64,000 bases of DNA from a virus: positions 32,001 to 96,000 of the IMG/VR virus record IMGVR_UViG_3300027806_000001. One strand, given 5' to 3'. Each line of letters starts with the position of its first letter. Positions within the stretch are counted from its first letter, which is position 1. This document shows positions 33,112 through 56,822 of the stretch, piece after piece. The position numbers were made by a program, and so were the translations under genes. The notes under the pieces were generated by a model. It saw only the letters and a program-made list of their open reading frames with translations, had not been told where the DNA came from and ran no database searches.

Positions 33112-33735
33112 TCAGAGATTCATCAGAATTCCGTCGTGCACCGCGCGGTACCGACGGTCGAGCATCGACGCGTTGACCAGGACGGACTTGCCGCGCTGGT
33201 AGTGTCCCCTGGCCTCGTGGATGTGGCCAAAGACGTGCAGCTTCGGCTGGACCCTGTCCAAGGCCCCTAGGAGCTCATTACAGCCGACCTCTTCGCCCTC
33301 TTGCGTACGGTCCCCCAGACCGAACGGCGGGCCGTGCGTGACCAGGACGTCGATCCCTGAGGGAATCAGATCCCACTTGGCCTTCAGGGCCTCGCCACGC
33401 GGCAGGTTGAACGCCCAGTCGTTGAACCACGGTTGCCAGGGCGAACCCCAGATCCTCAGACCCTCGACCGTCACTTCCTCGTCCTGCAGGTAGTGGATGC
33501 CTGCGTCCTTGAACCACTTCGTTGCCGGGTCGCCGTTTTGAAGGCAGAAGTCGTGGTTGCCGGCGATGACCACCTTGTGCGGATGCGGCAACGACTCCAG
33601 CCAGGCCACGGCCTGGGCCATCTCCGACAGTTTGCCTTCCATGGTCAGGTCCCCTGCATGGATCAGCAGGTCGCCGTCGGGCACGAACGAGCCCTCGCAT
33701 CTGTTGTGCGTATCGGAAATCAGGACCACCCTCAT
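33112..33735 (-). CDS. Metallophosphoesterase (MPPED/Rv0805-like)
   Basis: ISDTH, IHAGDLT, IAGNHD, LVTHGPP, VFGHIHE motifs. Confidence 0.9.
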   Translation of the reverse strand: MRVVLISDTHNRCEGSFVPDGDLLIHAGDLTMEGKLSEMAQAVAWLESLPHPHKVVIAGNHDFCLQNGDPATKWFKDAGIHYLQDEEVTVEGLRIWGSPWQPWFNDWAFNLPRGEALKAKWDLIPSGIDVLVTHGPPFGLGDRTQEGEEVGCNELLGALDRVQPKLHVFGHIHEARGHYQRGKSVLVNASMLDRRYRAVHDGILMNL

Positions 33736-33932
33736 TGCGACATCCCTCCGTAGTTCTTCTTCAAGTCCTCCAGCTGCCGCAGCCTGGCCAGCACGCAGTC
33801 CGTGCAGACCGTCAGCGGCTTTCCAGGTCTGGCTCGGTCAACCGGCAACCTCAGCGGCCACCTGCCGGGGTTGCCGGCAAGTTTGCAGGTCGGATCGCCG
33901 CAGTAGAAGCAGTCTCCGTCTTTGACGTCCAT
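33732..33932 (-). CDS. Small Cys-motif protein
   Basis: CFYC...C...CTDC, ATGA-coupled. Confidence 0.5.
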   Translation of the reverse strand: MDVKDGDCFYCGDPTCKLAGNPGRWPLRLPVDRARPGKPLTVCTDCVLARLRQLEDLKKNYGGMSQ

Positions 33933-38109: not shown

Positions 38110-38137
38110 ATTCTCACACGAGGCAGGACGCTGTTTA
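38110..38137 (-). promoter_or_regulatory. Early-type promoter TAAACA-N16-GAGAAT
   Basis: TAAACA GCGTCCTGCCTCGTGT GAGAAT. One of four copies with identical spacing. Confidence 0.7.
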
Positions 38138-39838: not shown

Positions 39839-40039
39839 CTAGTTCCCGTCGTCGACGGGACAGTCCAGATATTGGTCCAGCGCGTCCTTGATCTGGAGGT
39901 ACAGCGTGTCGCTCCGGGAGCCGACCGGAGGATCGTCCGGCACCAGCCCCTCGAGGACGAGCACGTTGTAAAGCGCGTTCGTCATGCGGTTCCTAATGGC
40001 GATGCGCTCGCGGTTGTTCAGCTTGATCAGATCCTTCAT
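39839..40039 (-). CDS. Small hypothetical protein
   Basis: 66 aa, ATGA-coupled to the upstream Gly-rich ORF. Confidence 0.55.
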   Translation of the reverse strand: MKDLIKLNNRERIAIRNRMTNALYNVLVLEGLVPDDPPVGSRSDTLYLQIKDALDQYLDCPVDDGN

Positions 40040-40287
40040 CCCCTCCCCCTGCCGTCGCCGCTGCCCGTGCCGCCGCCAGTGCCGCAGCCGTAACCGCCGC
40101 CGCAGCCGTCGCCCTTGCCGCCCGCCGTCACGCCGCCGGCGTTGCCGCCGCCCATGCCTCTGCCGTTGCCGTTGCCGCTGCCCTCGCCGCTGCCGTAGCC
40201 GCCGCCGGCGTTGCCGTAGCCGTAGCCCATGCCGTAGCCGTCTCCTCTTCCGCTGGCCGTTCCGCTGCCAGGTTGAATGCCGCTCAT
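40036..40287 (-). CDS. (Gly-X)n low-complexity protein
   Basis: Start re-called at MSGIQPGSGTASG (SD AAGGAGG, ATGA overlap). Confidence 0.65.
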   Translation of the reverse strand: MSGIQPGSGTASGRGDGYGMGYGYGNAGGGYGSGEGSGNGNGRGMGGGNAGGVTAGGKGDGCGGGYGCGTGGGTGSGDGRGRG

Positions 40288-40508
40288 GCAGTCACCTCCT
40301 TGGGCTCTTCCTCGTCCTTGTAGATCTCGACCCTGTACTCCGTGCCCGTCTTCGTGACCTTGGTCGCGACGTCGTTCAGCCAGTCCGCATCCTCCTGCGC
40401 CTTGGCCCTGGAGTCGTAGATGCAGGGCTTGCCGACGCCCTCGTTGAGCAGGCCGCGGTCGTCCTTGTCCTTCATCAGGCGGACGCACCATCTGCGCTTG
40501 GCCTTCAT
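40284..40508 (-). CDS. Small hypothetical protein
   Basis: 74 aa, sandwiched between two Gly-X ORFs and coupled on both sides. Confidence 0.55.
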   Translation of the reverse strand: MKAKRRWCVRLMKDKDDRGLLNEGVGKPCIYDSRAKAQEDADWLNDVATKVTKTGTEYRVEIYKDEEEPKEVTA

Positions 40509-40873
40509 CAGTCCCCCCTTCCGGCGCCGTTGCCGAAGCCTTGGCCGCAGCTCATGCCCCAGCCCCTGCCACTGCCGTTGCCGTTGCCGCCACCATAGGC
40601 AGTGCCGCAGCCGTAGCCGCCGCCGCCAGAGCCGACGCTGCAGCCATAATCACCGCCGTGGCCGTTTGCGCTGCCGTGGCCGAAGCCGCCGCCCCTGCCG
40701 CTGCCTTTGCCATCGCCCCAGCCGCTGCCATCGCCATAGCCCCTGCCGTTGCCGCTGCCACAGCCACTGCCGTAGCCATAGCCGGTGCCATCGCCCCAGC
40801 CGCTGCCGTAGCCGTTGCCCCTGCCGTCTCCCATGCCGCTGGCTGTTCCGTTGCTCTGTCGGTTGTCGCTCAT
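40508..40873 (-). CDS. (Gly-X)n low-complexity protein
   Basis: MSDNRQSNGTASGMGDGRGNGYG..., SD AGGAGGA. Confidence 0.7.
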   Translation of the reverse strand: MSDNRQSNGTASGMGDGRGNGYGSGWGDGTGYGYGSGCGSGNGRGYGDGSGWGDGKGSGRGGGFGHGSANGHGGDYGCSVGSGGGGYGCGTAYGGGNGNGSGRGWGMSCGQGFGNGAGRGD

Positions 40874-40971: not shown

Positions 40972-41439
40972 TCAGGCCGCTTCGCGAATGGTCTGCACGG
41001 CCTCGTCGGTGCACGGGATGCACTCGATCACGCCGTGGACGTAGATGTCCACCTCGGCGTCGATCTTGCTGTTCTTGGCATTGACGCCGTGCTTGGCGAC
41101 GCCCGACAGGGCGACGCCCTTCTTGCCCGCGGTGATCTCCCACGACCACAGCCGGCGGCCGTGAAGCAGGTAGTACTCGCCGCCCTGGCGGCCGACCATG
41201 AATCCGAAGTGCACGCCCGACTCACCGGAGCGCACGAGGACCCACCTGCCGGCGAACGGGTGCGGCTGCCAGGCGATGCTGGCGATCTCCGGGGCGATCT
41301 CCGGCTTCGAGGTCAGCGAAACGGCCGGGGCGCACTTGAGGCCCTTGACGGCCTTGGCGACCTCGCCGGGCACGACTTCCTTCACCACGTCGGTGATGGC
41401 GGGGCGGAGGGCGTCGACGATTGGATTGCTGCTGCTCAT
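40972..41439 (-). CDS. DUF6948-like protein
   Basis: WVLVRSGESGVHFG...GRRLWSW...LSGVAKHG...VIECIPCTDEA matches the family pattern (VR...GV..G...ARRLW.W...LS..A..G...IEIIPCT..A). Confidence 0.7.
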   Translation of the reverse strand: MSSSNPIVDALRPAITDVVKEVVPGEVAKAVKGLKCAPAVSLTSKPEIAPEIASIAWQPHPFAGRWVLVRSGESGVHFGFMVGRQGGEYYLLHGRRLWSWEITAGKKGVALSGVAKHGVNAKNSKIDAEVDIYVHGVIECIPCTDEAVQTIREAA

Positions 41440-41584: not shown

Positions 41585-41612
41585 ATTATCACACGCCTGT
41601 GCTGCTTGTTTA
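41585..41612 (-). promoter_or_regulatory. Early-type promoter TAAACA-N16-GATAAT
   Basis: TAAACA AGCAGCACAGGCGTGT GATAAT. Confidence 0.7.
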
Positions 41613-45720: not shown

Positions 45721-46214
45721 TCCTTGTTCTCCTTGGCAGGGTCCTTCCCCTGCGATTCGATGAATTCTCCAAACACGTCCTTGTCCTCCGGCCACACCTC
45801 CTCGACCGGCCAGCCCGCCGCCATCCTGGCCTCCTTCAACCGCTCCCGGAGCTCCTCGATCTCTGCGGCATCTCCCTCGCACTTGACCCAGGCTCCCTCC
45901 TGGTAGCCCTGGGCATCCACCGACCGGGACCACTCCCACCGGTACCCCATGCTCTGCAGCTTCTCCACTGCAGCCTCGCCGACGATGTCGCCGCCGTCGG
46001 ACCAGATTGCGATCTCGTCGCCATCCAGGGACCGCCCGTAGACGGCCTTGGGGTTCCTCATGGGGTGGTCCGGATCCGAACCCTCGTCCACGGCCTCCTG
46101 GGCCTTCTCGACGACGCACCTGTAGGTCGCCACCAGCGTGCCGGACGGGGCGGTCCACGCCACCCCGTCGCAGCAGCCTCCGTCCGCACCGTGGGTTTCG
46201 CGCTGCTCGTTCAT
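45717..46214 (-). CDS. Hypothetical protein
   Basis: 165 aa, ATGA-coupled. Confidence 0.55.
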   Translation of the reverse strand: MNEQRETHGADGGCCDGVAWTAPSGTLVATYRCVVEKAQEAVDEGSDPDHPMRNPKAVYGRSLDGDEIAIWSDGGDIVGEAAVEKLQSMGYRWEWSRSVDAQGYQEGAWVKCEGDAAEIEELRERLKEARMAAGWPVEEVWPEDKDVFGEFIESQGKDPAKENKE

Positions 46215-46900
46215 GCTTCCTCCTTTTCTTCGGGTTCCGACGAGGTGTCGAGCTCGTCGTCATCGGCCAGGGGCACGATCGCCAGGTCCCGCCTGGAGGC
46301 CGCCCAGACGATCCGCAGGCAGGGCTGCTCCTTGCCCTCGCCGTCCTCGAAGGTGCCGTCCTCGAGGTGGGCGCCGAGTCCGTGGGCCAGTTCCCAGATG
46401 ACCTCCGCCAGGGTCTTCTTGGAGAGCTTGCTGAGGATCCGCGGCTTCTCCGCCAGCGGCTCGACCGCGGCCTCCTCCTCCAGCATCCCCACCTTGCTCC
46501 TCAGGATGTTCAGGATGCGCTTGGCCTCCAGGCCGCGCGCCTCGTCGGTCATGCCCTGAGGGAAGGCCAGGTCCCGCCGGCCGAGCATGAGGGCGACGTA
46601 GCCGCGCATGCCCGACTCGCGCACCTGGGCCTCCAGGGAGGCCTTGCTCTCCTCGTCCAGCTCGAGCTCGTGGAGCATGATCGTCCGGGCGACCTGGTCC
46701 TGGACGACCAGCTCGATCACGTGCAGCATGGCCTTGTCCATCTGCTCGAGGGCGGCCTTGTGCCGGGCCGTCAGGATACGGGCCTCGAGCAGGACCTTGT
46801 CCACGTCGAAGAACCTGGTCTCGAAGGGCAGCTTGGCCCGCACCTGCCCGATCTCCGCCCTCAGTCCGTCCATCTCCGTCTTGGGATCCTGTGGCTTCAC
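46211..46900 (-). CDS. Hypothetical helical protein
   Basis: 229 aa, GTG start overlapping the upstream stop. Confidence 0.55.
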   Translation of the reverse strand: MKPQDPKTEMDGLRAEIGQVRAKLPFETRFFDVDKVLLEARILTARHKAALEQMDKAMLHVIELVVQDQVARTIMLHELELDEESKASLEAQVRESGMRGYVALMLGRRDLAFPQGMTDEARGLEAKRILNILRSKVGMLEEEAAVEPLAEKPRILSKLSKKTLAEVIWELAHGLGAHLEDGTFEDGEGKEQPCLRIVWAASRRDLAIVPLADDDELDTSSEPEEKEEA

Positions 46901-47232
46901 TTCTTCCTGCCTTTCTTGTTGGTCTGCTTCCTGGGTGGAAGGATGGTACGCCTCTCAAAACACTCGATCATCTGCCTGACGATCTCGTAGTCCTCCTTCT
47001 TGGTCTTGCCGGGAAGCTCTTCCTCGGGCAGGTCGGCCAGCCAGTTGCGCGCACAAGAGTGAGAACTCTTGGCGATCACGTTCCATTTGTTTGGATCGTC
47101 GATAAGGCTCAGCTTGCTGCCCGTCTCCGGATACCTGAGGTACGTGCCAGACCCTCGGCACCGGAGTAGGTGGTAGAAGTGCACGAAGCTCTTCCTGATC
47201 TTTCCGTCTGACTTCCTGTGTCGCCTGCCCAT
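46897..47232 (-). CDS. Hypothetical basic protein
   Basis: 111 aa, ending NKKGRKK. Confidence 0.55.
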   Translation of the reverse strand: MGRRHRKSDGKIRKSFVHFYHLLRCRGSGTYLRYPETGSKLSLIDDPNKWNVIAKSSHSCARNWLADLPEEELPGKTKKEDYEIVRQMIECFERRTILPPRKQTNKKGRKK

Positions 47233-47235
47233 GTG

Positions 47236-47517
47236 CTACTCCTTGCGCTCGAGCGCGTCTTCCATGCGGAACACCTCGCGCCCCTCGGCGTCGAGGTACA
47301 CGGTCCGGGTGACCTCGTAGGTGCGCACCGTCAGGCCCTCCACCGTCAGTCCGTCCAGCAGGACGCCGGACGTCACGGTGTTGTCCCGGACGTACTGCTC
47401 CTGCCGCTCGTCCTCGGCCTTACGGACCAAGACTATGGCGATCATGCCGCCCATGACCGCGATCACCAGGATCAGCACGAGCACCCCCTGCGACCACTCC
47501 TTGAATTCCTTTTTCAC
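47236..47517 (-). CDS. Membrane-anchored protein
   Basis: TM helix VLVLILVIAVMGGMIAIVLV. Confidence 0.6.
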   Translation of the reverse strand: MKKEFKEWSQGVLVLILVIAVMGGMIAIVLVRKAEDERQEQYVRDNTVTSGVLLDGLTVEGLTVRTYEVTRTVYLDAEGREVFRMEDALERKE

Positions 47518-47819
47518 TTCTTCCTGCCTTTCTTCTTAGCCTGCTTCTTTTTGGACTTCCGGGGTCTGGGGGCGGTCGCCTTTCCGCCACCCTTGGCGTC
47601 GATGCCTCCAAGGGAGTCCGCGACGATCATCCCCGCGGACTCGACATCGTCCAGAGCCTCATCGATCGCGTCGTGCACCTGCTCGAACTTGTGATTGCCG
47701 AGCTCGGCAGCCTGATCGTCGGTCAGAAGCCGGTCGAACGCCAGGAGGGACGTGGTACCTTTGTGCTCCGCCTTGAGCTGCTTCAGCGCGGAGATGTACT
47801 CGTTGATGGTGAGGATCAC
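47514..47819 (-). CDS. Hypothetical protein
   Basis: GTG start re-called (ILTINEYISAL...). Ends AKKKGRKK. Confidence 0.55.
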   Translation of the reverse strand: MILTINEYISALKQLKAEHKGTTSLLAFDRLLTDDQAAELGNHKFEQVHDAIDEALDDVESAGMIVADSLGGIDAKGGGKATAPRPRKSKKKQAKKKGRKK

Positions 47820-48148
47820 TGCTTCCTGCCTTTCTTCTTGGTCTGCTTGGCCGCATTCTCGCGGCGGTGGATCTCGCTCCATAGACGTGGGCCGCCCGTC
47901 CAGGTCCTGCCCTGGAGCTCGATGTACGCATCCTCGATCAGGGCGGCCAGCTTGGGCGCGTTGCCGGTGAAGGTCTTGGCGTAGAAGTAGCCGTCCCAGT
48001 CGTAAAGAGTCATGCTGGCCGCGGCAATCCTGCGCTCTAGATCCTTGATGCGTTTCTGCGCCTTGAGCAGCTCCGAGGTCGCACACCCGCACGTCGCAGG
48101 CTTGGCCTTGGAGGATCCCGTCTTACGACTCTTTGCCTGCTTGCTCAT
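47816..48148 (-). CDS. Hypothetical protein using the Gly-array junction
   Basis: Start re-called at MSKQAKSRK. It has the same junction as the Gly-X ORFs but a non-repetitive body, and ends TKKKGRKQ. Confidence 0.6.
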   Translation of the reverse strand: MSKQAKSRKTGSSKAKPATCGCATSELLKAQKRIKDLERRIAAASMTLYDWDGYFYAKTFTGNAPKLAALIEDAYIELQGRTWTGGPRLWSEIHRRENAAKQTKKKGRKQ

Positions 48149-48447
48149 CCTGCCCCCTTTCCGTTGCCATCGCCATAGCCGTAGCCGCTGACGTAGCCAA
48201 AGCCATAGCCACTGCCGTAGCCGCAGCCTCTGCCGCAGCCGTAGCCTGTGCCATCGCTGCTGCCAGATCCAGTGCCACGGCCGTTGCCCCAGCCGTAGCC
48301 ACTGCCGGTGCCGTGGCCACTGCCCCTGCCATCGCCGAACTCGCCGCCGCACTTGCCGAAGCCTACGCCTCTGCCGGAGCCATCGCCCTCGCCGCAGCCA
48401 CTGCCGCTGCCGTCGCCATTGCAGTACTCGATGTTCTGCGTGCTCAT
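48145..48447 (-). CDS. (Gly-X)n array protein 8
   Basis: MSTQNIEYCNGDGSG...GNGKGAG, ATGA-coupled. Confidence 0.7.
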   Translation of the reverse strand: MSTQNIEYCNGDGSGSGCGEGDGSGRGVGFGKCGGEFGDGRGSGHGTGSGYGWGNGRGTGSGSSDGTGYGCGRGCGYGSGYGFGYVSGYGYGDGNGKGAG

Positions 48448-48764
48448 CCTGTCCCCCTTCCGTTGCCATCGCCCTCGCCCCTGCCGTAGCCCCTGCCGTA
48501 GCCTGTGCCGTTGCCCATGCCGCGGCCATAGCCAAAGTCGCCGCCTGCGCCGCCTACTCCGCCACCCACTCCGCTGCCATCGCCCCTGCCGTTACCCCAG
48601 CCTCTGCCGCAGCCGTAGCCTGTGCCATCGCCGTCGCCCCTGCCTTCCGCCCTGCCGCAGCCTGTACCGAGGTATTCGCGGTTGCCATGGCCCCAGCCCC
48701 AGCCGCTGCCGAAGCCTTGGCCGGCAATTGCTCCGCAGCCGTACTCGATCCTCTGCTTGCTCAT
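48444..48764 (-). CDS. (Gly-X)n array protein 7
   Basis: Start re-called at MSKQRIEYGCG. Confidence 0.7.
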   Translation of the reverse strand: MSKQRIEYGCGAIAGQGFGSGWGWGHGNREYLGTGCGRAEGRGDGDGTGYGCGRGWGNGRGDGSGVGGGVGGAGGDFGYGRGMGNGTGYGRGYGRGEGDGNGRGTG

Positions 48765-49162
48765 CCTGCCCCCTTTCTGCGGCCATTGCCCCAGCCGCGG
48801 GCCGTGCCGCAACCGTGACCTCTGCCCATGCCGTCGCCGTAGCCGCTGCCCTGGCCGTCTCCAGCAAAGAAGTACGGGCCGCCGCCGGAGCCCTGACCAT
48901 TGGTGTAGCTGGGGCCGAAGAAGCTTGTAGTGCCGTAGCCTGTGCCGTCGCCGCAGCCCTTGCCGTCGCCGTCTCCATAGCCATCGCCGCGGCCATCGCC
49001 ACCAAAGACAAAGCCATGCGCCGAGCCGTGGCCGTAGCCTGTGCCGTCGCCGCAGCCCTTGCCGCTGCCGCTGCCCCAGCCTGCGCCCCAGCCGTCGCCG
49101 TCCGCGTCGCCGCGGCCTGTGCCGAGGCTATTGCAGTTGCCTAAGTTGCGTTTCTTGCTCAT
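48761..49162 (-). CDS. (Gly-X)n array protein 6
   Basis: Start re-called at MSKKRNLGNCNSLG. Aromatic inserts FVFG, SFFGP, PYFFAG. Confidence 0.7.
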   Translation of the reverse strand: MSKKRNLGNCNSLGTGRGDADGDGWGAGWGSGSGKGCGDGTGYGHGSAHGFVFGGDGRGDGYGDGDGKGCGDGTGYGTTSFFGPSYTNGQGSGGGPYFFAGDGQGSGYGDGMGRGHGCGTARGWGNGRRKGAG

Positions 49163-49497
49163 CCTGCCCCCTCCCCGTTGCCGGCGCCCAGGGTTGCACC
49201 CCCGCCATTGCCAGTGCCGTTGCCGTTGCCCCTGCCGTTGCCCTGGGCTAAGCCGCCGGTCCAGTTCCGGCCATCGCCGTAGCCATAGCCGCCGCCAGTG
49301 CCGTAGCCGCCGCAGTTGCCGCCGCCGTAGCCGCTGCCACTGCCGTCGCCGTCGCCGCCGTAGCCGGTGCCGCGGCCTTGGCCGCGGCCGCAGCCCTCGC
49401 CGCTGCCGCTGCCCCTGCCCCAGCCTGCGCCCCAGCCGCTGCCGTCGCCATGGCCGGAGGCCGTGCCCTTGCCGTACTCGATGTTCTGCGTGCTCAT
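49159..49497 (-). CDS. (Gly-X)n array protein 5
   Basis: MSTQNIEYGKGTASG...LGAGNGEGAG. Confidence 0.7.
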   Translation of the reverse strand: MSTQNIEYGKGTASGHGDGSGWGAGWGRGSGSGEGCGRGQGRGTGYGGDGDGSGSGYGGGNCGGYGTGGGYGYGDGRNWTGGLAQGNGRGNGNGTGNGGGATLGAGNGEGAG

Positions 49498-49856
49498 CCT
49501 GTTCCCTCCCCGTTGCCGGCGCCCAGGGTTTCACCATGGCCGCTGCCACTGCCCATGCCGTTGCCCTTGCCATCGCCCCTGCCGTCGCCGCCGCCGCAGC
49601 CGCTGCCACTGCCCATGCCGTTGCCCTTGCCATCGCCCCTGCCGTCGCCGCCGCCGCAGCCGTTGCCACGGCCTGAGCCGTCGCCACTGCCGTCGCCGAA
49701 CCCGGCGCTGCCGCCGCCGTAGTTGTTGCCATCTCCCCAGCACCGGCCGTAGCCTTGGCTATCGCCGCAGCCTGAGCCGCTGCCGTAGCCCCCGCCTCTG
49801 CCGCAACCGTGGCCGGAGGCCGTGCCGTAGCCGTACTCGATCCTCTGCTTGCTCAT
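49494..49856 (-). CDS. (Gly-X)n array protein 4
   Basis: MSKQRIEYGYGTASG...LGAGNGEGTG, with an internal 60-bp tandem duplication. Confidence 0.7.
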   Translation of the reverse strand: MSKQRIEYGYGTASGHGCGRGGGYGSGSGCGDSQGYGRCWGDGNNYGGGSAGFGDGSGDGSGRGNGCGGGDGRGDGKGNGMGSGSGCGGGDGRGDGKGNGMGSGSGHGETLGAGNGEGTG

Positions 49857-50281
49857 CCTGCCCCCTTTCCGTTGCCGTCGCCCATACCTCTCTGAAACCC
49901 GTGGCCATAGCCGCAGCCCCTGCCGTCGCCCTGGCCCCGGCCCCTGACCTGAGCCGACGGGCTACCGTAGGGAAACAGAAGCCCTCCGCAACCGTGACCT
50001 CTGCCCATGCCGTCGCCGTGACCTTGGCCGTAGTCCGGCTGACTGGACTTGACCGTCCTGACCAGAGGCCCGCAACCGTCGCCAGTTCCGTTGCCGTCGC
50101 CGTGGCCACTGCCCCAGGGGGAGTAGCCTTCGTCGCCGCCGTAGCCGTTGCCACAGCCGGCGGTCGACCTGCTCCTGCCGGTGCTCCAGCCCCGGCCTTT
50201 GCCATCGCCTTGGCCTGCGCCATCGCCAAAGCCGCTGCCGCGGCGTGCAAGCGCCTCGGCTGAAAATTCATCGTTGCTCAT
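49853..50281 (-). CDS. (Gly-X)n array protein 3
   Basis: Start re-called at MSNDEFSAEALARRGSG. Confidence 0.7.
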   Translation of the reverse strand: MSNDEFSAEALARRGSGFGDGAGQGDGKGRGWSTGRSRSTAGCGNGYGGDEGYSPWGSGHGDGNGTGDGCGPLVRTVKSSQPDYGQGHGDGMGRGHGCGGLLFPYGSPSAQVRGRGQGDGRGCGYGHGFQRGMGDGNGKGAG

Positions 50282-50625
50282 TTCTTCCCCTTTCCGTTGC
50301 CTCGACCTTGGCCGTTGCCGCTGCCGCAACCATCACCAGAGCCGTTGCCGTTGCCGTCACCGTTAGCGGTTCCGCTGCCGAAACCGAAGCCGCGGCCGTC
50401 GCCCATGCCGCAACAGCAACCACGGCCCATGCCATCGCCGCTGCCGCTGCAATAGCCGGAGCCGCTGCCGTTGCCGCTGCCGATGCCACTGCCGTTGCCA
50501 TAGCCCCAGCCGCTGCCAGTGCCGTTGCCGTAGCCCTCACCTGTGCCGTTGCCGAACCCGGCGCCGCTGCCACTGCCGTAGCCCCTGCCGCTGCCGTCGC
50601 CATAATCGATCCTCTGCGTGCTCAT
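50278..50625 (-). CDS. (Gly-X)n array protein 2
   Basis: MSTQRIDYGDGSG...GNGKGKK. Confidence 0.7.
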   Translation of the reverse strand: MSTQRIDYGDGSGRGYGSGSGAGFGNGTGEGYGNGTGSGWGYGNGSGIGSGNGSGSGYCSGSGDGMGRGCCCGMGDGRGFGFGSGTANGDGNGNGSGDGCGSGNGQGRGNGKGKK

Positions 50626-50696
50626 CCTGCCCCCTTTCCGTTGCCGTCGCTGCCACCCTGCGCCGAGCCGTGGCCCATGCCGTTGCCTTGAGTCAT
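50622..50696 (-). CDS. (Gly-X)n array mini-ORF 1, 24 aa (possible remnant)
   Basis: My translation: MTQGNGMGHGSAQGGSDGNGKGAG*, coupled by ATGA at both ends. Confidence 0.45.
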   Translation of the reverse strand: MTQGNGMGHGSAQGGSDGNGKGAG

Positions 50697-50827
50697 TCGA
50701 AGTCCTCCGTCTCGTGGGGCTCCAGGATCGGGCACCCTGCGCCGACCCAGGAGTCCATGCATTTGTGGCACCACGGCCACGACTCGTTCTCGTCGTATTC
50801 CCGCTTGCAGTTATCGCACTCGGCCAT
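50693..50827 (-). CDS. Small Zn-finger-like protein, 44 aa, heading the Gly-X array
   Basis: My translation: MAECDNCKREYDENESWPWCHKCMDSWVGAGCPILEPHETEDFE*. SD GAAAGGGGG. Confidence 0.55.
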   Translation of the reverse strand: MAECDNCKREYDENESWPWCHKCMDSWVGAGCPILEPHETEDFE

Positions 50828-50846
50828 AAAGCCCCCTTTCAACGGT

Positions 50847-50888
50847 GCAGGGAGGTCCTCCGCCTGATGGCGCGGAGGACCTCCCTGC
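50847..50888. repeat. Perfect 17-bp inverted repeat at the predicted transcription start
   Basis: GCAGGGAGGTCCTCCGC-8 nt-GCGGAGGACCTCCCTGC, 1 nt from the -10 box. Confidence 0.85.
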
Positions 50889-50889
50889 T

Positions 50890-50917
50890 ATTCTCACACG
50901 CGCGCCCCCGCTGTTTA
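50890..50917 (-). promoter_or_regulatory. Early-type promoter TAAACA-N16-GAGAAT
   Basis: TAAACA GCGGGGGCGCGCGTGT GAGAAT. Confidence 0.7.
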
Positions 50918-52864
50918 GCGGGTGGATTGCGGGGCCCAGACGCCCACGCAGTTCTCCGCGATCCACGTGAACAGCTCGGCCTTGAGGTCGGACTGGCTGC
51001 TCATGAGCCTGCGGAGCTCCTCCCACTGCGCCTGGGCGATCTCGTCGGTGCCGTAGAGGATCGACCCCGAGGCCAGCTCCTCGTCGAGGATCCGGAGCTT
51101 GTCGAAGTCGCCGCGGATGAACGAGACGTCGATGCCCATCTCCCTGAGCCTGGGGCTGATCATGCGCGCGGCCCGGACGGCGTAACCGTCGCGGATGTCC
51201 TCGAGCTTGTACTCCTCGCCCAGGAGCTCCTGGTCGACGCCTTGCTCCTCCAGGACGGACGAGACGATCGCCTGCAGCTGCTCCAGCCGGGTCTGGCCCG
51301 AGGCCGGATCCAGGGGCACGGCCAGCGCCTCGACCAGGGACGCGTGGATCGCCTGATGCACGGCCGGGCCAAGCACCTGGTCGAGCGGCACGGCCTTGCC
51401 CTCCGCCTCCGGCTGCTTGCCCTTGCGGGAGCTCTTGCCGGTGGCCTTGGGGAACGCCGTGACCAGGATGGGATCGGCCATGTCGTTGATCTGCATCAGG
51501 ATCAGCAGGCAGTTCGTCCTGTCGGTCAGGAACTCCCGCTTGTCCAGCTCCTGGCCCTCCACGGGGTCGGGCAGCATGGGCACGTAGTAGTCGACCTTGA
51601 CGCTATTCTTCAAGGATATGTTGTCCGCGGTTACGAACTTGCGGAATGCACGGCCGATCGTCTGCACGGCTAGGGACGAGCTGCCCTCGGGCGACGTGTG
51701 GTGAATGCGGGAGCAGGGGCACCAGTCGGTGCCCTCGCGGCCCAGCATGCACGTGACCACGACGTCGAACTTGGAATCGCCGTCCTCGGGCTTCTTGGGC
51801 TCCTGCAGCAGCAGGGCCTTGTGAGCGTCCTGGGTGGCCCGGGTGACCAGGTCCAGGATCCGGACGCCGGGCCAGGCCGCCCGGATGTCGTCCATGAGGG
51901 CGCGGATCTGGCCGGTCTCGTCCTGGCCCTTGCCGGCCTTGTCCTCGGTGCGCCACTTCTGGCCGATCGACGGAACGATGACCAGGTGCTTCTGGTCCTG
52001 CTCGCTGGCGATCGCCTGGACGACGTCGACCAGCGGGCCCTGCTCGTGCTCGTACTCGAGGAACTGCACCCGGAAGTCCGCGATCTTCAGAGTCTTCCAG
52101 TGGTCGATCCAGTCGCGCCAGTAGGTCGTGAAGCGGCCCTTGATGGAGTCGTCCAGGATCGCCGTCTGGTCGCCGCGGAACGGCGTGGCGGTCGTCAGCT
52201 GCAGCCGGGCCGAGTCCGCGGCCGGACGGCTAAGGACGAAGTTGCAGATCTTGCCCAGCTTGACCGACTCCTCCGTGCCCTCCTTTTCCGTGACGCCGTT
52301 GACGTGGTGCGCCTCGTCGATGCGGATCGTCAGGTTGCGCACCGCCTGGGCGCGCTCCGTGGCGTCCAGCTCCGACCAGAGGCGGGCCAGGGCGGCGTGG
52401 GAGGTGACCGCCGAGACCAGGCCCGAGCCGTCGGACTGGCGGAGGAGCCAGCGCTTCAGGTCGGCCATGATGGTCGGCGAGGAGGTGTTGCAGAAGTCGT
52501 GGCGGATGGCCCAGGTGAGGGTCTCCCACGTGGTGCGGATCTGGACCTCGGCGCCGTCGTCCCACTTGCTGAAGCCGCCGGAGATGTGGCTCTGCGGCAC
52601 GACGATGAGCTGCCGCTGGCGGAACCTCGTGTGCTCGGCCTCGTAGGCCGCGAGGGCGCACTGCAGGGTGGACTTGCCCGCGCCGCAGGGGGCGACGAGG
52701 AAGCTGTGCTCCGCGAGGTGCAGCTTGAGGAAGGCGTCGGGCTGCCAGTCCCGGAGCTCGCGGACGCCGGAGACGGCCTTGGGCTCGAGGACGATGGTGC
52801 TCCAGGTCGGGTTGGTGCCCGAGGTCGAGAGACGTGAGTTGCTGCGTGTCTTGGTCTTGTTCAT
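50915..52864 (-). CDS. Superfamily 2 (DExD/H, Res/UvsW-like) helicase/ATPase
   Basis: Q motif LRDWQ; I APCGAGKS; Ia LIVVP; II IDEAHH; III TATPFRGD; V GREGTDW; VI QTIGRAFR. Confidence 0.9.
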   Translation of the reverse strand: MNKTKTRSNSRLSTSGTNPTWSTIVLEPKAVSGVRELRDWQPDAFLKLHLAEHSFLVAPCGAGKSTLQCALAAYEAEHTRFRQRQLIVVPQSHISGGFSKWDDGAEVQIRTTWETLTWAIRHDFCNTSSPTIMADLKRWLLRQSDGSGLVSAVTSHAALARLWSELDATERAQAVRNLTIRIDEAHHVNGVTEKEGTEESVKLGKICNFVLSRPAADSARLQLTTATPFRGDQTAILDDSIKGRFTTYWRDWIDHWKTLKIADFRVQFLEYEHEQGPLVDVVQAIASEQDQKHLVIVPSIGQKWRTEDKAGKGQDETGQIRALMDDIRAAWPGVRILDLVTRATQDAHKALLLQEPKKPEDGDSKFDVVVTCMLGREGTDWCPCSRIHHTSPEGSSSLAVQTIGRAFRKFVTADNISLKNSVKVDYYVPMLPDPVEGQELDKREFLTDRTNCLLILMQINDMADPILVTAFPKATGKSSRKGKQPEAEGKAVPLDQVLGPAVHQAIHASLVEALAVPLDPASGQTRLEQLQAIVSSVLEEQGVDQELLGEEYKLEDIRDGYAVRAARMISPRLREMGIDVSFIRGDFDKLRILDEELASGSILYGTDEIAQAQWEELRRLMSSQSDLKAELFTWIAENCVGVWAPQSTR

Positions 52865-53736
52865 GGTTTCTTCGCTTTCTTGTTGGTTGTGCGTGAGTTT
52901 CTTAGCTGTGTGGAACGAGTGAACCAGTCCGGCCTCAAGGACCGGAGCTCCTGGTCGAACACCGGGTCGTAACTGTCGGACTTGGAGTTGGTGTAATCGC
53001 AGAGAGGATGGCCCAGCGGGTGCTTTTTCGCATTAGGCCTAGACTCCTCCCTCAGGGCCATGGCCTTGAGCTCGGCCTTGTTTAGTGCGGCAGTGTCCAG
53101 GAACCAATCGGGCCTGAGGGCCCGGATCTCCTGATCGAAGGAAGGGTCGTAGTTGTTGGACTTGGGGTTGGTGTAACGGCAGAGCGCTCCGCCCATCGGA
53201 TGCTTTTTCTGATTAGGCCTAGACTCCTCCCTCAGGGCCATGGCCTTGAGCTCGGCCTTGTTTAGTGCGGCAGTGTCCAGGAACCAATCGGGCCTGAGGG
53301 CCCGGATCTCCTGATCAAAAACCTGGTCGTAGCAAGCCCGAGAGGGGTGAGTGTACTCGCAGAGAGGATGGCCCAGTGGGTGCTTTTTCTTGCCGTTTTT
53401 TGAAGGCCTTGGATCGCCCCGCAGAGCCATGGCCTTGAGTTCGGCCTTTTTGCTTGTTGAGTCCTTGTCGCCCCACCACTGTGGTGCAACCGCCCTCAAC
53501 CTGGCCTCGAACTCAGGTTTATAGCTCGAGCTGCTTGGGTTCTTGTAGTTGTGCAGCGCACTCTTCAGCTGCTGCACCTTGAACCCCGTGGCCTCCGCCA
53601 CGGCCTCCCACAGCTTCCTGCTGTTGCCCTCGCCCCACTGCACCTCCGGCAGCTGCTCCGGGGCGATGCCGAGCTTCCCGCAGATGGCCTCGGTGACGGC
53701 CTTAATCTTCTCCCCTGTCAGGTGCCTGAGGTGCAT
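52861..53736 (-). CDS. Helical repeat protein 3 (three HA-like repeats)
   Basis: Three copies of KAELKAMALR.E.RP...KHPLG..LC.YT......YD..FDQEIRALRPDWF. Stop overlaps the helicase ATG. Confidence 0.8.
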   Translation of the reverse strand: MHLRHLTGEKIKAVTEAICGKLGIAPEQLPEVQWGEGNSRKLWEAVAEATGFKVQQLKSALHNYKNPSSSSYKPEFEARLRAVAPQWWGDKDSTSKKAELKAMALRGDPRPSKNGKKKHPLGHPLCEYTHPSRACYDQVFDQEIRALRPDWFLDTAALNKAELKAMALREESRPNQKKHPMGGALCRYTNPKSNNYDPSFDQEIRALRPDWFLDTAALNKAELKAMALREESRPNAKKHPLGHPLCDYTNSKSDSYDPVFDQELRSLRPDWFTRSTQLRNSRTTNKKAKKP

Positions 53737-56747: not shown

Positions 56748-56748
56748 G

Positions 56749-56822
56749 CGTCCGCACCAGGACTTGAACCTGGAACCGCCTCGTTAGGACCGAGATGCGC
56801 TATCCAATTGCGCCATGCGGAC
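56749..56822 (-). tRNA. trnR: tRNA-Arg (anticodon CCT)
   Basis: GTCCGCA TG GCGC AATTGGATA GCGC A TCTCG GTCCTAA CGAGG CGGTT CCAGG TTCAAGT CCTGG TGCGGAC G: full cloverleaf, CCA not encoded. Confidence 0.9.

Follow-up and report, generated by a model that had tools for sequence, protein, structure and literature searches.

The window analyzed here is a 64,000-nt stretch of viral DNA (bases 32001-96000 of IMG/VR record IMGVR_UViG_3300027806_000001), taken from a record of 183,468 bp that has direct terminal repeats and was judged complete. The window is about 65% G+C, and its minus strand carries nearly all genes. At 48145-50696, on that strand, lie eight consecutive open reading frames (ORFs) of 24 to 142 amino acids with alternating glycines, the (Gly-X)n genes C1 to C8 (cluster C). 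All eight start with ATG and stop with TGA, the stop and start of neighbors overlap as ATGA, and every start is preceded at 5 to 15 nt by a purine-rich GGAAAGGGGG, GGGGAGGG, or GGAGG. Glycine accounts for 34 to 46% of the residues, and each full-length protein contains 37 to 46 G-x-G triplets. The original prediction, made from the letters of the window, had placed eight Gly-alternating ORFs here, each with a Shine–Dalgarno sequence and ATGA coupling; coordinates, lengths, and Gly content were all borne out, and both coupling signals were found in 8/8 genes. Its statement that no function has been described for the family likewise stands: searches of Pfam and PHROGs with all eight proteins and their neighbors gave only sub-threshold low-complexity matches (a TrAA12-like linker), and a literature search turned up no paper on (Gly-X)n array proteins or on DUF6948, the partner family described below.

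The eight genes differ in length, regularity, and N-terminal leader. C1 (50622-50696, minus strand, as for all genes of the array) is a 24-amino acid (Gly-X)n mini-ORF with GGAGG 7 to 11 nt upstream and an ATGA overlap on both sides, and is probably a truncated copy that retains the C-terminal junction GNGKGAG. C2 (50278-50625, 115 amino acids, leader MSTQRIDYG) alternates strictly, with 50/50 Gly in one register. C3 (49853-50281, 142 amino acids, leader MSNDEFSAE) is the least repetitive copy, at 34% Gly. C4 (49494-49856, 120 amino acids, leader MSKQRIEYG) includes an in-frame 60-bp tandem duplication at 49539-49673 (period 60, 2.2 copies, 97% matches). C5 (49159-49497, 112 amino acids, leader MSTQNIEYG) has a GTASGHG motif in common with C4 and with cluster B elsewhere in the genome. 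The array continues with C6 (48761-49162, 133 amino acids, leader MSKKRNLGN) and C7 (48444-48764, 106 amino acids, leader MSKQRIEYG) and ends with C8 (48145-48447, 100 amino acids, leader MSTQNIEYC).

A (GGC NNC)n repeat by itself leaves most frames open, and open frames alone are therefore uninformative. The locus could on that ground be a repeat that matters as DNA or RNA, for instance as a recombination hotspot or as a G-rich transcript that sponges proteins, with incidental ORFs; the GGA motifs at the junctions would suit this explanation. Against it, the Gly-X frame contains no stop among its 487 non-Gly codons, whereas 5000 shuffles of the three codon positions among these codons produced a mean of 20.9 stops and never reached zero, despite the frequency of codons one step from a stop (TAC 32, TGC 26, TGG 14, TAT 9). 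Matched ATG, Shine–Dalgarno, and TGA elements occur at every unit in the Gly-X frame only. Outside the junctions the units share just 62 to 72% DNA identity, too little for a recent DNA repeat, and hundreds of phages with different DNA keep proteins of this type. We rejected a DNA-only reading because it fails the stop-codon statistic, and regard an origin of the ORFs as by-products of a nucleic acid repeat as extremely improbable. The claim that the X positions vary without stops under protein-level selection is upheld by the same statistic. Tandem-repeat periods within the array are multiples of 3 in 31/31 cases and of 6 in 30/31 (6, 12, 18, 24, 30, 36, and 60 nt, and one of 33). GGC makes up 82% of Gly codons in the array and 79% in six long genes of the window, and X codons show a weaker third-position G+C bias, with GAT, ACA, TTT, AGT, and AGR all raised, as expected at fast-changing positions. 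Judged by these sequence signals, C1 to C8 are real genes, with translation predicted to be coupled from one to the next.

A genome-wide screen identified 21 full (Gly-X)n genes, or 22 with C1, in five clusters (A to E) that occupy about 3.6% of the genome. Comparison of all junctions between the genes sorted them into two types: those of cluster C read ...GGCAACGGAAAGGGGGCAGG-ATGA-GCA(C/A)GCAG..., and those of clusters D and E read ...GGCAACGGCAAAGGAGGTTCCGA-ATGA-GCAACCC.... The corresponding conserved protein ends, GNG(K/E/R)G(A/T)G in cluster C and GNGKGGSE in D/E, encode the Shine–Dalgarno sequence of the next gene. The conserved C terminus GNG(K/E)GAG, which had been put forward as a feature of the protein, is instead the ribosome-binding site of the following gene, because the cluster C and D/E ends differ, yet both spell a Shine–Dalgarno sequence. 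The cluster C junction also links C8 to a 110-amino acid gene that is not Gly-rich, and a 44-amino acid zinc-ribbon-like gene to C1. Annotators should be warned that, in arrays of mini-genes, conservation at the termini can reflect a ribosome-binding site and not a protein motif.

At the other end of the proteins, the leader MS(T/K)Q(R/N)I(E/D)Y, reported to open most of the genes, is present in five of eight (C2, C4, C5, C7, and C8); the Gly expected next follows in four of these, and C8 has Cys. These five leaders vary at four codons, with three nonsynonymous changes and one synonymous, and their likeness may reflect protein-level selection or recent gene conversion. A degenerate DNA pattern made from the leader motif gave no viral match. 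The leader bears on whether the products are internal virion proteins, packaged and ejected, for which it would be a capsid-targeting or processing signal. Small disordered proteins are common among ejected proteins, and the leader brings an acidic residue (I-E/D-Y) in 5/8 genes; on the other hand, the clusters D/E leader, MSNPGNG, has no acidic residue, and the array sits among small accessory genes, in a block that follows sigma70-like promoter motifs and adjoins helicase and repeat-protein genes and not structural genes. We consider packaging and ejection improbable.

Tandem precursor-like genes with a common short leader and abundant Gly, Ser, and Cys could also encode ribosomally synthesized and post-translationally modified peptides (RiPPs) or Gly-rich bacteriocins, with a leader and a Gly/Ser/Cys core as in the microcin B17 precursor McbA, likewise a small Gly/Ser/Cys-rich product with an N-terminal leader. 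We rejected this possibility, and hold it to be very unlikely, since the complete genome encodes neither YcaO (PF02624) nor radical SAM (PF04055) enzymes, the two classes of modifying enzyme searched, in a search that was positive for control genomes. Typical RiPP leaders are far longer than the 9 residues seen here. The array cores (at least 100 amino acids) are much longer than those of McbA and come as many tandem paralogs, and no signal peptide or double-glycine motif was seen in the array sequences.

The genome contains a single DUF6948 (PF22253) gene (40972-41439, minus strand, Pfam E 8e-22), located directly upstream of cluster B (40036-40873), where the canonical DUF6948 and (Gly-X)n pair is present. 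An N-proximal G-T-A-S-G is common to C4, C5, and the two cluster B genes, and clusters A to E resemble one another in composition, with the limit that low-complexity alignment cannot prove homology. With the DUF6948 protein as query, tblastn matched 15 deposited phages. In 3/3 of those inspected, a (Gly-Ser/Tyr/Asp)n ORF directly follows the DUF6948 gene: Ralstonia phage NK-7 (XCO36016 and XCO36015, with the second annotated "fibroin heavy chain-like protein"), Pectobacterium phage Taid (XDF89793 and XDF89792), and Iodobacter phage PhiPLPE (gp84 and an unannotated ORF). An alignment-based scan confirmed DUF6948 in 304 viral contigs, 80 of which were kept for a count of what lies downstream; among the 68 with at least 150 nt downstream, a same-strand (GX)n run starts no more than about 100 nt away in 65, and none was found elsewhere in the locus. 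The reciprocal scan with the pattern (GGCNNN)11GGC found a (Gly-X)n ORF in 80/80 viral loci read, with DUF6948 directly upstream in 32/80, many of the remainder being cut at the locus end. The two partners are also fused. In IMGVR_UViG_3300002039_000015 (L134:4912-6030), a single ORF joins a DUF6948 core to a C-terminal (GX)n tail and is followed by a second, free-standing, His-rich (Gly-X)n gene, and P0036 is a fusion in the reverse order, with (GX)n before DUF6948 (43.5 bits). Across phages, the (Gly-X)n gene type thus has an almost obligate link to DUF6948, fusions included.

The (Gly-X)n homologs have a median length of 82 amino acids and 43% Gly. In the single-copy partners, X is Ser in 33%, Tyr in 23%, and Asp in 19%, with an isoelectric point (pI) of 4.1 (n = 66). 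Like the array genes, the canonical partners are small, translationally coupled ORFs with alternate Gly, a short polar leader, and no predicted fold. They are single, acidic, and directly behind DUF6948, whereas cluster C is an eight-gene array about 9 kb off, with its own leader and junction and a charge-balanced composition that includes Arg, Cys, Trp, His, Asn, and Thr (pI 5.0-8.6, Arg 6%, Cys 3.4%, Trp 1.7%) in place of the acidic one made up mostly of Ser, Tyr, and Asp. All clusters of this phage are similarly charge-balanced (pI 5-8.6, Arg 4-6%, Cys 1.5-3.4%, Trp 1-2.5%). The short, basic single-copy leader (K-N-K-x-F-T-D-G) has Phe at -3 from the first Gly in 38/67 cases; in the cluster C leader, (K/T)-Q-(R/N)-I-E-Y-G, position -3 is Ile and a basic residue occupies -4 or -6, at most a loose resemblance.

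An AlphaFold2 model of DUF6948 reached a predicted local distance difference test (pLDDT) score of 87. Its best Foldseek matches in the PDB were all Sm/LSm proteins (E 5e-3 to 3e-2, target template-modeling scores of about 0.6), and VIA-align returned almost exclusively Sm/LSm entries in its top 35 rows (Z 7.7, root mean square deviation 2.5 Å over 66 of 69 residues). By agreement of both methods, DUF6948 models as an Sm/LSm-like barrel, with an N-terminal helix and a five-stranded bent barrel. Among Sm-fold proteins, SmD1 and SmD3 carry Gly-Arg dipeptide tails, LSm4 has an RGG tail, and the C terminus of Acinetobacter Hfq consists of GGFGGQ repeats. Like these proteins, the phage module would combine an Sm-fold core with a disordered Gly-rich tail, and the L134 fusion has both in one polypeptide. 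It departs from them in that the "tail" is a separate gene, 22-fold in this genome and built of Gly-X with many X residues, and in that DUF6948 is without classical Sm1/Sm2 motifs. T4-type phages encode small early proteins with a predicted LSm-like fold, namely GoF and Frd.2 as well as MotB.1, and the GoF(D25Y) variant raises mRNA stability (PMC12152347), a precedent for phage Sm-like proteins that act on RNA. Glycine and the DUF families are absent from that paper, the nearest found in the literature, and the comparison with DUF6948 is by predicted barrel.

Cluster C and the DUF6948 gene may also be co-regulated. A promoter-like motif, TAAACA-N16-GAGAAT, lies at 50890-50917 (minus strand), ahead of cluster C, where it overlaps the stop of a helicase gene; it is preceded by TGT, as in an extended -10 element. 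TAAACA-N16-KAKAAT occurs four times in the window (0.01 expected), and relaxation of the -10 part to KANAAT gives seven matches genome-wide, every one on the gene strand. The motif of the DUF6948/cluster B unit, at 41585-41612, is nearly identical to that of cluster C (GCGTGTGATAAT versus GCGTGTGAGAAT; GCGTGTGA(T/G)AAT in common), which supports co-regulation. A scan of 46000-53000 with the sigma70 consensus found no canonical promoter. Because the TAAACA motif resembles an extended -10 sigma70 site, we infer that it is an early promoter read by the host polymerase. The original prediction had given the array this promoter as its own. As a sequence motif it is real; the first gene behind it is, however, the 44-amino acid zinc-ribbon-like gene, and further overlapped small genes follow C8. 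The array thus heads an operon of about 9 kb and has no promoter to itself, because the ATGA chain includes the flanking genes and the next motif downstream is the one at 41585-41612.

The core of the earlier proposal, a real, diversified, and probably early family of low-complexity proteins under protein-level selection, is supported by the frame statistics, the coupling, the promoter-like motif, and the absence of a predicted fold. Of the candidate roles that it listed (condensate, amyloid, shield, metal binding through Cys/His, and decoy), none is favored by the present results; the main clue to function, which it did not include, is the association with DUF6948. We favor, with moderate confidence, the reading that C1 to C8 are a disordered, amplified, and diversified family of the Sm-tail type, with a function as "tails in trans" of an Sm-like protein. 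The (Gly-X)n family would be the amplified form of a widespread phage gene that normally occurs singly, directly after the DUF6948 gene or fused to it. The array would have grown by duplication at a fixed 30- to 50-nt junction, made up of the last codons of one gene (GNGKGAG, which is also the next Shine–Dalgarno sequence), the ATGA overlap, and the first codons of the next gene, and the ends would be conserved because duplication ran through this junction. The cores would meanwhile have drifted under only two constraints, Gly at alternate residues and no stops, and the chemistry of the family would have moved from an acidic makeup (Ser/Tyr/Asp) to a charge-balanced one that includes Arg, Cys, Trp, and His, a change that would permit self-association and many variants. 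The proteins would be detachable low-complexity tails of a phage Sm-like ring, made early from the same promoter class. They may tune the binding of the ring to RNA or another nucleic acid, or join such particles into larger assemblies by numerous weak contacts of Tyr, Trp, and Arg. On this account cluster C presumably descends from a DUF6948-adjacent gene, and its products would still work with the Sm-like protein, on RNA or on ribonucleoprotein (RNP) assembly, early in infection.

Several findings count against a role as tails of an Sm-like ring. Cluster C has no adjoining DUF6948 gene; it is preceded by the zinc-ribbon-like mini-gene and lies about 9 kb from DUF6948. Scores for the match to Sm proteins are middling (Z < 8, with Foldseek E about 1e-2), and the invariant residues of DUF6948 (RLWSW and LSG.A) are not the classical Sm1/Sm2 motifs, so that RNA binding by DUF6948 is putative. 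Homology between low-complexity proteins is beyond proof by alignment: C5 as query (HMMER and a word-indexed search) found no relative at E ≤ 1e-3, and a profile run against 1.8 billion representatives yielded 534 matches, all of them compositional (Gly-[YDNS])n stretches and for that reason unusable as homologs; the fusions came to light in this search. Stretches of (GX)n are also joined to unrelated domains, and the module may therefore work without DUF6948. Three metatranscriptome runs contain 21 to 35% of the sequence words of the 47000-52000 stretch, with contigs 100% identical to the window on the array flanks and in C3 (49843-50136 and 49866-50033, two libraries), and C2 is touched by one. 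These contigs are a weak sign that the array is transcribed, because DNA can be present in RNA libraries and repeats interrupt contigs; they leave most of the array without coverage, and these gaps are unusable as evidence.

The same observations bear on a different account, in which the proteins are self-associating sticker-and-spacer polymers that act without an Sm-like protein. Tyr, Trp, Phe, and Arg would be stickers and Gly and Ser spacers in a condensate or gel, formed early in infection, in which phage factors are concentrated or from which host factors are kept out; alternatively, the products would be decoys for a host sensor or protease. The array has 8.7% aromatic residues, 5.6% Arg, and balanced charge, with its 495 non-Gly residues spread over 19 amino acids (Ser 70, Ala 31, the rest mostly polar, charged, or aromatic). 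It also has no predicted fold: the AlphaFold2 model of C2 with its paralogs has a mean pLDDT of 29, and the ESM Atlas model of C2 a pLDDT of 0.37, values that fit intrinsic disorder. The 22 copies and their share of the genome suggest a dose-dependent bulk role, and both the distance of cluster C from DUF6948 and the presence of (GX)n modules on many unrelated domains would suit partner-free polymers. What speaks against such polymers is that the ancestral single-copy form is bound to DUF6948 by gene order and by fusions and that cluster C and DUF6948 have a promoter class in common. Weighing these points, we regard polymers independent of the Sm-like protein as possible and rather unlikely. 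More speculative, and in our view doubtful, is a further account, in which the Sm-tail gene escaped its partner to become a self-sufficient system. Here 22 charge-balanced proteins bearing Arg, Tyr, Trp, and Cys, made early and in bulk, would assemble together into a phage-built membraneless compartment, whether or not the single Sm-like ring and RNA take part. If this were true, the make-up of the compartment would be set by the mix of paralogs, a viral multi-gene counterpart of eukaryotic RNP granules with the simplest dipeptide grammar.

Among the small modules of tailed phages that have no explanation, the pair of DUF6948 and (Gly-X)n is one of the commoner; nearly every readable confirmed contig carries it. 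We encountered no natural collection of variants larger or more varied than that of the phage described here, 22 genes that are charge-neutral and not acidic. The array is a starting point for studies of how strict Gly-X polymers act in a bacterial cell, of detachable tails of phage Sm-like proteins, and of condensates built by bacterial viruses.

Other Gly-rich systems are alike in composition. As in the array, Gly/Ser spacers with Tyr and Arg stickers occur in the low-complexity domains of FUS and hnRNPA1 and in high-Gly/Tyr keratin-associated proteins (KRTAP), and the nearest named cluster in the ESM Atlas has Pfam KRTAP in 16% of its members. The likeness is by composition alone: there is no homology, and the array differs by its strict dipeptide register and its high content of Cys, Asp, and Asn. 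When PDB sequences were searched with the family profile, the matches were low-complexity tails only, including poly-GR. We rejected collagen-like (Gly-X-Y)n proteins, as the array repeats have no 9-nt (3-residue) period, and silk-fibroin-type (Gly-Ala/Ser)n proteins, as X is not limited to small residues. Variable proteins of diversity-generating retroelements were likewise rejected, the genome having no reverse transcriptase (PF00078) and the X codons including many that are not NNC.

Further arrangements of (Gly-X)n stretches were seen in other sequences. A recurrent architecture (P0016, P0024, P0035, P0070, P0078, P0094, P0095, P0104, P0111, and P0130) consists of a leader MEx(L/I)..F, a (Gly-X)n stretch, and a C-terminal domain, KVYYIDxIP(C/T)...FAHGKT, that has no Pfam name. 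Other stretches follow N-terminal domains, also without a Pfam name, that have GAC..G or a TIGR02996-like WLEE motif. An unrelated phage (IMGVR_UViG_3300048502_000134, L159:687-2971) carries a tandem array of five (Gly-Ser/Tyr/Asp)n genes whose ends are fixed, MGLKAFLKFG...GEPNLTSAGATVVEE. A weak DUF6948-like gene and a 225-amino acid gene lie upstream of it. Each gene of that array ends in ...VVEE just before the next start, and this end, back-translated from protein to GTGGTGGAGGAG, would spell a Shine–Dalgarno sequence. As this unrelated phage has an array of its own, amplification of the (Gly-X)n gene type has occurred more than once.

The phage is widespread and its sequence is stable. 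Sequence words of window positions 47000-52000 occur in 20 runs from 14 studies (freshwater, lake, and "fungus" metagenomes), and 71 to 97% of them are present in each of 17 DNA runs, dated 2017-2024. A megablast search with 12 kb of phage sequence found no match among deposited phages. One identical metagenome contig of 1.5 kb ends at the array edge. The joints seen in run X14 have short sides and fall at repeats, and are unusable as evidence. The same run contains a variant contig (depth 7) with seven substitutions and four small deletions (1 + 2 + 1 + 2 = 6 nt) at 49926-49964 in C3; because the deletions total 6 nt, the net change is in frame, and the contig may be a strain allele or a misplaced paralog.

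The genome's only tRNA, tRNA-Arg(CCU) at 56748-56822 (minus strand), reads AGG, which makes up 45% of Arg codons in the Gly-X genes versus 28% in 86 long reference genes. A tie to the array was rejected: the reference genes contain 622 AGG codons and the Gly-X genes 52, and the tRNA is therefore not array-specific and serves the whole genome.

In the cluster C operon, the promoter-like motif is separated from the first ribosome-binding site by a hairpin with a 17-bp stem (50850-50888, minus strand) and a predicted RNA folding energy of -53.2 kcal/mol (z -5.7, 200 shuffles). Because the hairpin comes directly after the motif, the predicted transcript start falls at or inside its stem; it could be a stem-loop that stabilizes the 5′ end or, for the helicase operon upstream, a T-less terminator. 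Inspection by eye shows a similar inverted repeat, also GC-rich, just after the motif at 38110-38137. Downstream of C8, the 110-amino acid gene (47816-48148, minus strand) has its first 12 bases (MSKQ, ATGAGCAAGCAG) identical to those of C4 and C7 and is overlapped by the start of the next gene as GTGA (47816-47819). It belongs to no Pfam or PHROGs family, and a search of viral contigs found no close relative of it or of the helicase. The 44-amino acid first gene of the operon (50693-50827, minus strand) is Cys-rich (CxxC...CxxC), its stop overlaps the C1 start as ATGA, and its Pfam hints are weak (Prok-RING_4, E 0.097; HypA, E 0.19). Zinc-ribbon-like CxxC...CxxC genes adjoin two of the five Gly-X clusters, this one before cluster C and another, at 33732-33932 (minus strand), after cluster A.

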